Below the pieces are notes generated by a model. The model worked only from the letters and a program-made list of their open reading frames with translations. It was not told where the DNA came from and made no database searches. From assembly GCA_951406725.2 (NCBI GenBank), contig OX597832.1, positions 59,830,001-59,894,000 of the forward strand: 64,000 nt of DNA, in the 5' to 3' direction. A program made the translations under genes and the position numbers. Position 1 is the first letter of the stretch, and each line of letters begins with the position of its first letter. Below, piece after piece: positions 6,520 through 7,313 of this stretch. Source of the stretch: Octopus vulgaris. Taxonomy: Eukaryota.

Positions 6520-6913
6520 AAGGCGGCGAGCTAGCAGAAACGTTAGAACGCCGGGTGAAATGCTTATTTCGACTGTCGTTACGTTGTGAGTTCAAATTCC
6601 GCCGAGGTGGACTTTGCCTTTCATCCTTACGGTGTCGATAAATTAAATACCAGTTACGCACTGGAGTCGATGTAATCGACTTAATACCTATGTCTGTCCT
6701 TGTTTGTCCCCTCTATGTTTAGCCTCTTGTGGGTAATAAAGAAATAGGTATTTCGACTGTCTTTACGTTCTGAGTGCAAATTCCGCCGTGATCGATTTTG
6801 CCTTTCATCCTTTCGGGGTCGATGAACTAAGAAATAGCTGCGTACTTGGGTAGATCTAATTGAATGCCCCACTTCCCAAAATTTTGTGCCTTGTGCCTAG
6901 AGCAGAAAAGAAT
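6520..6913 (+). mobile_element. tRNA-derived SINE family 1 (Meta-domain-like core), composite dimer with internal Tx1-like tail (6681-6746)
   Basis: Head aggcggcgagctagcagaa with B-box-like gagttcaaattcc; core 'gactttgcctttcatcctt.cgg.gtcgataaatt'; multiple copies in this window. Confidence 0.9.
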
Positions 6914-6929
6914 ATTACTATTAATTCAA

Positions 6930-7313
6930 GAGCTGGCAGAATCATTGGCACGCCGGGCACAATGCTTAGCGGTATTTCGTCTGCCGCTACGTTCTGAGTT
7001 CAAATTCCGCCGAGGTCGACTTTGCCTTTCATCCTTTCGGGGTCGATTAAATAAGTACTAGTTACGCACTGGGGTCGATATAATCGAATTAATCCGTTTG
7101 TCTGTCCTTGTTTGTCCTCTCTGTGTTTAGCCCCTTGTGTGCAATAAAGAAATAGGTATTTCCTTGGTCTTTACATTCTGAATTCAAATTTCGCCGAGGT
7201 CGTCTTCGCCTTTCATCTTTCGGTGTCAATAAATTAAGTACCAGTTGCGTACTGGGTTGATCTAATCGACTGGCCTCCTCCCCTAAAATTTCGAGCCTTG
7301 AGTAGAAAAGAAT
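6930..7313 (+). mobile_element. SINE family 1 composite dimer, second copy (Tx1-like tail 7089-7154)
   Basis: Same architecture and same junction (aataaagaaata|ggtattt) as 6520-6913. Confidence 0.9.

Follow-up and report, generated by a model that had tools for sequence, protein, structure and literature searches.

Two composite elements that lie side by side in a 64,000-nucleotide stretch of Octopus vulgaris DNA (contig OX597832.1, positions 59,830,001 to 59,894,000; the window) raise the question of whether a SINE can insert site-specifically into members of its own family. A sequence-only reading of the window had proposed this, and the structure it described was borne out. Each composite (6520-6913 and 6930-7313) reads head, core, a 66-bp tail (tail A), GGTATTT, core and a second tail (tail B), and in both the junction falls at the same internal position, just before GGTATTT (6746/6747 and 7154/7155). 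The diagnostic bases said to separate first from second units, ACGCAC and GCGTAC, were also found in the sequence. SINE positions were numbered along the 168 nt of head and core, and the second units begin at position 50, which lies between the A and B boxes predicted from the consensus.

Table 1. Composites and related elements of the window (positions are those of the window)
Feature	Position	Strand	Remarks
Possible target-site duplication, left copy	6509..6520	+	11/12 identical to 7314-7325; weak, as the flank is of low complexity
Possible target-site duplication, right copy	7314..7325	+	12-bp direct repeat with 6509-6520, enclosing both composites together
Composite 1, unit 1: tRNA-type head and core	6520..6680	+	predicted A and B boxes
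Composite 1, tail A (ACCTAT/TAAT variant)	6681..6746	+	last ~45 nt similar to LINE 3' ends
Composite 1, unit 2: from GGTATTT (position 50), B1-type core, tail B	6747..6913	+	putative older target
Composite 2, unit 1: head (from position 9) and core	6930..7088	+	
Composite 2, tail A, variant other than that of composite 1	7089..7154	+	58/66 identical to tail A of composite 1
Composite 2, unit 2: GGTATTT, B1-type core, tail B	7155..7313	+	putative older target
Trimer A-A-B	49255..49869	-	one junction at position 50, one at position 16
3' end of L1/Tx1-like LINE	36344..36705	-	similar to tail A over its final 42 nt; (ATCT)n-ending family
Monomer with older tail-B type end	53634..53848	+	reference for SINE numbering

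The same junction had been claimed to recur at 49636/49637. The element there is a trimer, in which one junction does lie at position 50, but the other lies at position 16 (AGAA) and not at GGTATTT. Second units were more diverged than first units in both composite 1 (0.125 vs 0.057) and composite 2 (0.081 vs 0.023), and the two first units were identical at 101/115 positions. Unit 1 of composite 1 has a 6-bp deletion at its position-50 site and a private A at position 59 that also occurs in unit 2, while the first and last units of the trimer share private variants at 62 and 67. Public contigs at the locus were swamped by paralogous copies, with no piece bridging it. Just 5' of the composites, 18-bp tandem repeats in inverted orientation occupy 5672-6221 of the window (5672-5971, 5976-6112 and 6158-6221).

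We then counted junctions throughout the genome. The SINE unit measures 234 bp and is short, non-coding, high-copy, interspersed and accompanied by target-site duplications, as is a tRNA-derived SINE; box-like motifs were seen in its head by comparison with the consensus, ARAGORN gave no genes and Rfam no tRNA match. The tail-A subfamily has 101,678 exact tail ends, and 29,830 of these (29%, an exact genome-wide count) run directly into the 11-letter SINE site at position 50. Reversed control patterns gave no matches genome-wide, and the position-50 junctions are therefore not due to chance. Tail A followed by GGTATT and a non-T base was found 3,795 times. For an unbiased sample we took 140 evenly spaced 10-kb stretches (1.4 Mb), and later tests added loci from searches, which favour younger copies. 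The tail-A profile had 105 matches in the unbiased set; after exclusion of 15 (LINE ends, truncated or edge matches), 90 SINE-borne tails with a complete end were kept. Position 50 followed 32 of these (two with a small deletion), position 16 followed five, and other DNA followed the remaining 53. Insertions per site were 0.22 for SINE sites and 0.004 for non-SINE GGTATT sites, a ~52-fold excess that is scaled from a sample (68 SINE and 451 non-SINE sites) and somewhat inflated by duplication within arrays.

Position 50 is thus strongly preferred, ~50-fold per site, rather than strictly specific, because 53/90 copies lie outside SINEs. The proposed site-specific insertion into the SINE's own family stands as far as a preferred internal site is concerned (32/90), and positions 50 and 16 together account for 37/90 ends. 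The on-target share (37/90 in the sample, 29% genome-wide) lies above the 20% taken to mark target preference in the available part of an earlier report (PMC4494074). Insertion sites within the SINE number two in sense and one in antisense. Tail A, described earlier as an alternative tail, is not rare: single elements in the 140 stretches carried tail A (45) about as often as tail B (50). Among 101 tail-A monomers, 25 read CCGTAT at positions 49-54, a change that destroys the GGTA site and goes with G at position 45. B and C monomers almost never have it, and it is possibly an escape variant.

Analysis of target-site duplications gave further insight into the landing motifs. Duplications were detected for 54 of 70 tail-A monomers, against 1.4 in shuffled controls. 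They are 10-26 bp long (mostly 12-19), begin at the tail end and mostly start with GGTA, AGAA or TATA; SINE position 50 matches the GGTA motif and position 16 the AGAA motif. Off-target and antisense insertions have such 10-26 bp duplications, and sense insertions into SINEs are seamless. Two copies (L012, and L309, which splits a tail-B copy) occupy a GGTAC site of another SINE in antisense orientation; both have a complete head and are flanked by a duplication of 15-17 bp, which shows insertion into existing genomic SINE copies. This antisense site exists in most SINE copies and holds only 2/312 tail ends, so the short motif alone does not explain use of the sense site. GTA was present at 51-53 in 16/18 non-A units that follow a tail, compared to 23/69 otherwise. 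Two 5'-truncated copies inside non-SINE GGTA targets (L243 and L275) have position 50 as their first base, which is what annealing of the cDNA to the target at this point would produce.

Variants of the tail were linked to the landing motif. The ACCTAT variant was found at GGT sites in 22/24 cases as against 127/224 (p=0.0007), and the CAAT variant at AGA sites in 22/59 as against 3/152 (p=3e-11); several partner LINEs could also be the cause of this link. The 5' end could be located for 117 tail ends flanked by non-SINE DNA, and 51 of these had a duplication that could be used. Within the first 6 nt of the duplication the motif was matched in the downstream copy alone at 14 positions, in the upstream copy alone at five and in neither at one; counted by locus, 10 leaned toward the motif downstream and three the other way (p=0.046), one of the 10 coming from 20 loci selected on downstream GGTATT. 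These mismatches seem to lean toward a short 3' extension of the RNA, on weak statistics. We rejected GGTA as a purely RNA-borne extension because the upstream copy of the duplication usually contains GGTA, and GGT-class targets mostly match the motif fully already, which the endonuclease alone would also give. According to the available part of PMC8466645, TATTT is a Pol III terminator in other SINEs; these letters also occur inside the head of this SINE. Three of four tails fold no better than shuffles, and one tail variant pairs with its own junction (z -2.0).

Tail A also occurs inside larger tandem repeats (C12:58110943-58123421 and C1:12697588-12698357; periods ~4.15 kb and 247 bp). At two loci (L231:1290-1505 and L250, both minus strand) an unrelated element whose two ends match (TTAACCCTTT...AAAGGGTTAA) is inserted in the first TTAA of the tail; this element resembles a TTAA-targeting DNA transposon, and the same upstream letters recur at eight places among the listed matches.

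A comparison of the units within arrays showed that the downstream units are older and heterogeneous. Arrays contain two to five units, and those of the unbiased set were A-B (12), A-A (5), A-A-B (3), A-A-A (3), A-C (2) and others (4). Divergence was compared in the 45 of 56 arrays with a clean parse. Relative to the first unit, the last was the more diverged in 20/26 tail-B arrays (less in three, tied in three; p=0.0006) and in 7/7 arrays ending in other tails, and in 12 arrays ending in tail A the two were alike. Pairwise distances were 0.151 among last B1 units (29), 0.162 among B1 monomers (20) and 0.099 among first units. Measured against the class consensus, tail-A units diverged by 0.033, headed C units by 0.135, and B1 units by 0.068 where they follow a tail and by 0.069 where they have their own head. 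The last units do not form a clade, and their tails are of types A, B, C and others.

These results bear on whether the composites descend from a fixed dimeric master that was amplified as a single unit, in the manner of Alu. Duplications do enclose whole composites in 15/28 cases, as such a master would predict. A single clade with halves of equal age was not what we found, and a fixed master is refuted because the downstream units are older, of several tail types and not one clade; the variable number of units and the occurrence of two junction positions also speak against it, and we consider it extremely improbable. The idea that polymers grow by self-homing was upheld in part. Joined chains are seen, but neighbouring tail-A units within arrays are closer (0.075, n=16) than those of different arrays (0.102; p=0.001), and three units at one locus (L105) share a deletion pattern at the junction, which together indicate that part of the chain length arose by duplication of neighbouring units. 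At two loci (L022, with two composites, and L004) whole elements follow one another head to tail, and an identical duplication separates them each time, which shows that one target site was used again. A mosaic (L039:4773-5120) has a first unit that shares target variants out to position 140 and a last unit with a tail-A-like start, and a monomer with a tail-A-type front and a tail-B end (L106:9760-9990) is perhaps a collapsed composite.

The insertion had been thought to restore a seamless Pol III head. The 5' side is indeed seamless; the head is mostly not that of the target. Among 101 elements that start with a tail-A unit, SINE sequence lay less than 90 bp upstream in 10, and only three of these (L006, L015, L029) looked like a leftover head. 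Divergence of composite heads was 0.08-0.12, like that of tail-A monomers, compared to 0.17-0.25 for old monomers, and it was uncorrelated with divergence of the last unit (rho 0.02). A G at position 45 that is specific to tail A was present in 6/35 composite heads and 0/64 B and C monomers. Position 21 was dropped as a head marker, as B1 monomers mostly have the tail-A state. Variants of the last unit at 51-62 were present in the first unit in 5/34 cases (1.0 by shuffling, p=0.001) and absent in 29/34; composite 1 and the trimer of the window are among the minority with target sequence in the head. The shared variants could also derive from later exchange between tandem units, as at L039. By these markers the composite head appears seamless but mostly replaced by the invader's.

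We also searched for the partner LINE. Three LINE families have 3' ends that can be aligned with tail A (42-50 columns), so that the SINE subfamily shares its 3' tail with LINEs, as had been suggested and as is characteristic of tRNA-derived SINEs. The family represented in the window encodes RVT_1 and zf-RVT, that is, an L1-group reverse transcriptase with a C-terminal zinc domain, the solved structures closest to it include human L1 ORF2, and most of 30 copies end in (ATCT)n-type repeats. A LINE protein of this genome has a named relative in Argonauta. We call the partner LINE Tx1-like as a presumptive label. Tail B matches the end of the 3' UTR of a fourth, L1/Tx1-like LINE (27/29 nt; L109:4913-4941), indicating that the older subfamily also has a LINE-derived tail; duplications of this subfamily tend to start with ATT or ATATT. 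At least three related LINE families (L040:3879-4400, L202-L230, L052-L080) have similar 3' ends and different flanks: (CT)n, CAA and (ATCT)n. The families ending in (ATCT)n and before CAA were both rejected as the partner, as they have the tail end in common and not the landing motif. Searches of the genome did not find a LINE with exactly tail A; the full tail without SINE upstream gave 113 matches, and inspection of 30 of them revealed variants of the SINE or tails into which something else had inserted. A LINE at the SINE site was absent from the matches for one LINE family's tail (0), from 275 site-50 positions in the analysed loci and from 30 copies of a second family. One 5'-truncated LINE (L222) may be a chimera: a SINE head that breaks off near position 56 abuts it upstream, and the DNA downstream contains no SINE.

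Taken together with what we observed (the junction counts, the age asymmetry, the mixed downstream tails, the duplications of off-target and antisense insertions, and the link of tail variant to motif), the best explanation, and in our judgement probably the right one, is that a young SINE inserts in place at position 50 of its older relatives, guided by an endonuclease motif and by pairing of its RNA and cDNA with the target. Insertion would occur by target-primed reverse transcription. A Tx1-like LINE protein would recognise tail A and nick a short motif of the GGTA, AGAA or TATA class. Pol III would read past the tail into the landing site and add a 3' extension to the SINE RNA; in a copy resident at position 50 this extension would match position 50 of every family member, favouring priming there and making the preference heritable. 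The cDNA, being homologous to the target head, would anneal to it and usually replace it, which would account for the lack of the usual duplication and of a second head, and the homing SINE would likely overwrite the promoter of its older relative. Repeated insertion and duplication of neighbouring 184-bp units would lengthen the chain. Both pairing steps have precedents in the parts of two studies available to us: 100 nt of downstream target raised the efficiency of R2Ol from 12% to 96% (PMC6530143), and upstream target sequence gave a melanogaster-type R1 precise 5' junctions (PMC2718515).

In-place homing requires near-complete replacement of the head, because composite heads are mostly of the invader type even where the last unit is old. 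This is its main strain, and the main support for an explanation in which insertions into SINEs are rare and are re-copied by read-through: Pol III would start at the A head and read to the old tail, the LINE of that tail would copy the head-A/tail-B RNA, and most composites would be secondary products of many masters. Re-copying also accounts for the B-type duplications around whole composites and for old, mixed last units; the LINE 3' end matched by tail B fits it, as do the three loci with SINE head sequence directly upstream of a full head. It requires the machinery of tails B and C to have been active at the time of the tail-A burst, yet none of 22 headed tail-C units and 3/16 B1 units are as young as 106/187 tail-A units. 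The 29 last units included no close pairs (minimum distance 0.07), which would also escape notice if there were hundreds of masters, and target variants at 51-62 in the first unit are not predicted. The flanking duplications look older than tail A, a weak indication: mismatches were 10/139 in A-B/C composites and 33/930 in elements ending in tail A (one-sided p=0.04), with 11/120 in B/C monomers. Duplications were also detected less often around A-B/C composites (10/25) than around tail-A monomers (54/70). Their older look favours in-place events, though detection was low in A-A arrays as well (10/21). The tests of duplication age and of mismatch direction thus give homing marginal support, and we regard re-copying as unlikely.

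If the target were chosen by the endonuclease only, a Tx1-like LINE would have a long recognition site in the SINE head, the SINE would ride along without RNA pairing, and adjacent heads would collapse afterwards by deletion between direct repeats. Target preference in the Tx1 clade is set mainly by the endonuclease, according to the consulted part of PMC4494074, and targets here need GTA at 51-53. This explanation is decidedly unlikely, given that 53/90 copies lie at short, varied motifs, that tail variants track motifs (several partners could also give this), that junction bases sometimes differ from the target in the direction of the motif, and that random collapse would leave mostly target-type 5' head sequence, which is not seen. 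A one-step chimera could also arise if reverse transcriptase on a tail-B RNA, on reaching GGTATTT, continued from the 3' end of an RNA with tail A. Such template switching would yield invader-type heads, seamless joints and B-type duplications, with the GGTATTT extension supplying microhomology. We hold it to be highly improbable, as it predicts halves of equal age where last units are about twice as diverged, cannot produce antisense insertions with duplications, and leaves the junction motif coinciding with the off-target landing motif.

Returning to in-place homing, we tentatively suggest a further step, one that we would not assert: the RNA may carry a heritable address, in which the landing sequence serves as the 3' guide of the progeny, lineages resident in the family home to the family, and old Pol III promoters are overwritten. 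If this were true, decayed relatives in the tens of thousands would have become potential masters again through one subfamily. The site is destroyed by a one-letter change in a quarter of tail-A monomers, as would be expected of an escape variant. With ~30,000 natural events and sequence markers on both partners, three questions can be addressed with genome sequences only: what pairing of RNA and target contributes, beyond the choice by the endonuclease, to target-primed reverse transcription; how a cDNA that is homologous to its target resolves the 5' junction; and how heads and tails are exchanged between SINE subfamilies. Annotation is also affected, as these chains will be assembled wrongly into many distinct SINE families and given wrong ages.

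The SINE family studied here may be OR1 or OR2. Motif look-ups for OR1/OR2, CORE and Nin/Deu gave no match in the searched files of published supplements. OR1 and OR2 are tRNA-derived SINEs of Octopus (Ohshima and Okada 1994, as cited in the parts seen of PMC4824008, PMC4758252 and PMC5804259). In the open literature searched, we came across no SINE described as joining itself seamlessly to members of its own family at one fixed internal base, and the covered parts of a 2026 octopus repeat annotation (PMC13282606) do not mention self-targeting SINE chains.

The nearest likeness, as described in the available portion of PMC4494074, is SINEU-3/Tx1-Mar of crocodilians, a SINE that also prefers an abundant repeat as target, with the preference attributed to a Tx1-clade partner and tandem copies to sequential insertion, as is proposed here. 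Its target is a Mariner DNA transposon and not its own SINE family, its tandem copies sandwich a duplication whereas sense insertions here are seamless, and its on-target share is 90% compared to about 35-40% here. For R1 and R2, the excerpts used (PMC2718515, PMC6530143) report that 3' read-through into the target raises insertion and that upstream target sequence on the RNA gives precise 5' junctions, both comparable to the pairing proposed here; R1 and R2 are autonomous LINEs of rDNA, while here a non-autonomous element would supply both homologies from its own body. B2, Dip and Ves likewise form multimers in a large share of copies (40%, 49% and 11.5%), the origin of which was left open by the authors in the part of their paper covered; those are full units head to tail, unlike the join at a fixed internal base and the headless later units seen here (PMC8466645). 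Part of a SINE also occurs in tandem in squamate SINE-derived satellites (PMC10702118) and bivalve tandem SINEs (PMC11481361), which the portions seen explain by recombination or duplication. In the chains described here the last unit is often a member of a different and older subfamily, an arrangement that duplication cannot produce. Target-preferring SINEs and SINE multimers are already known, and what appears to be new here is self-targeting at an internal base with seamless joins.
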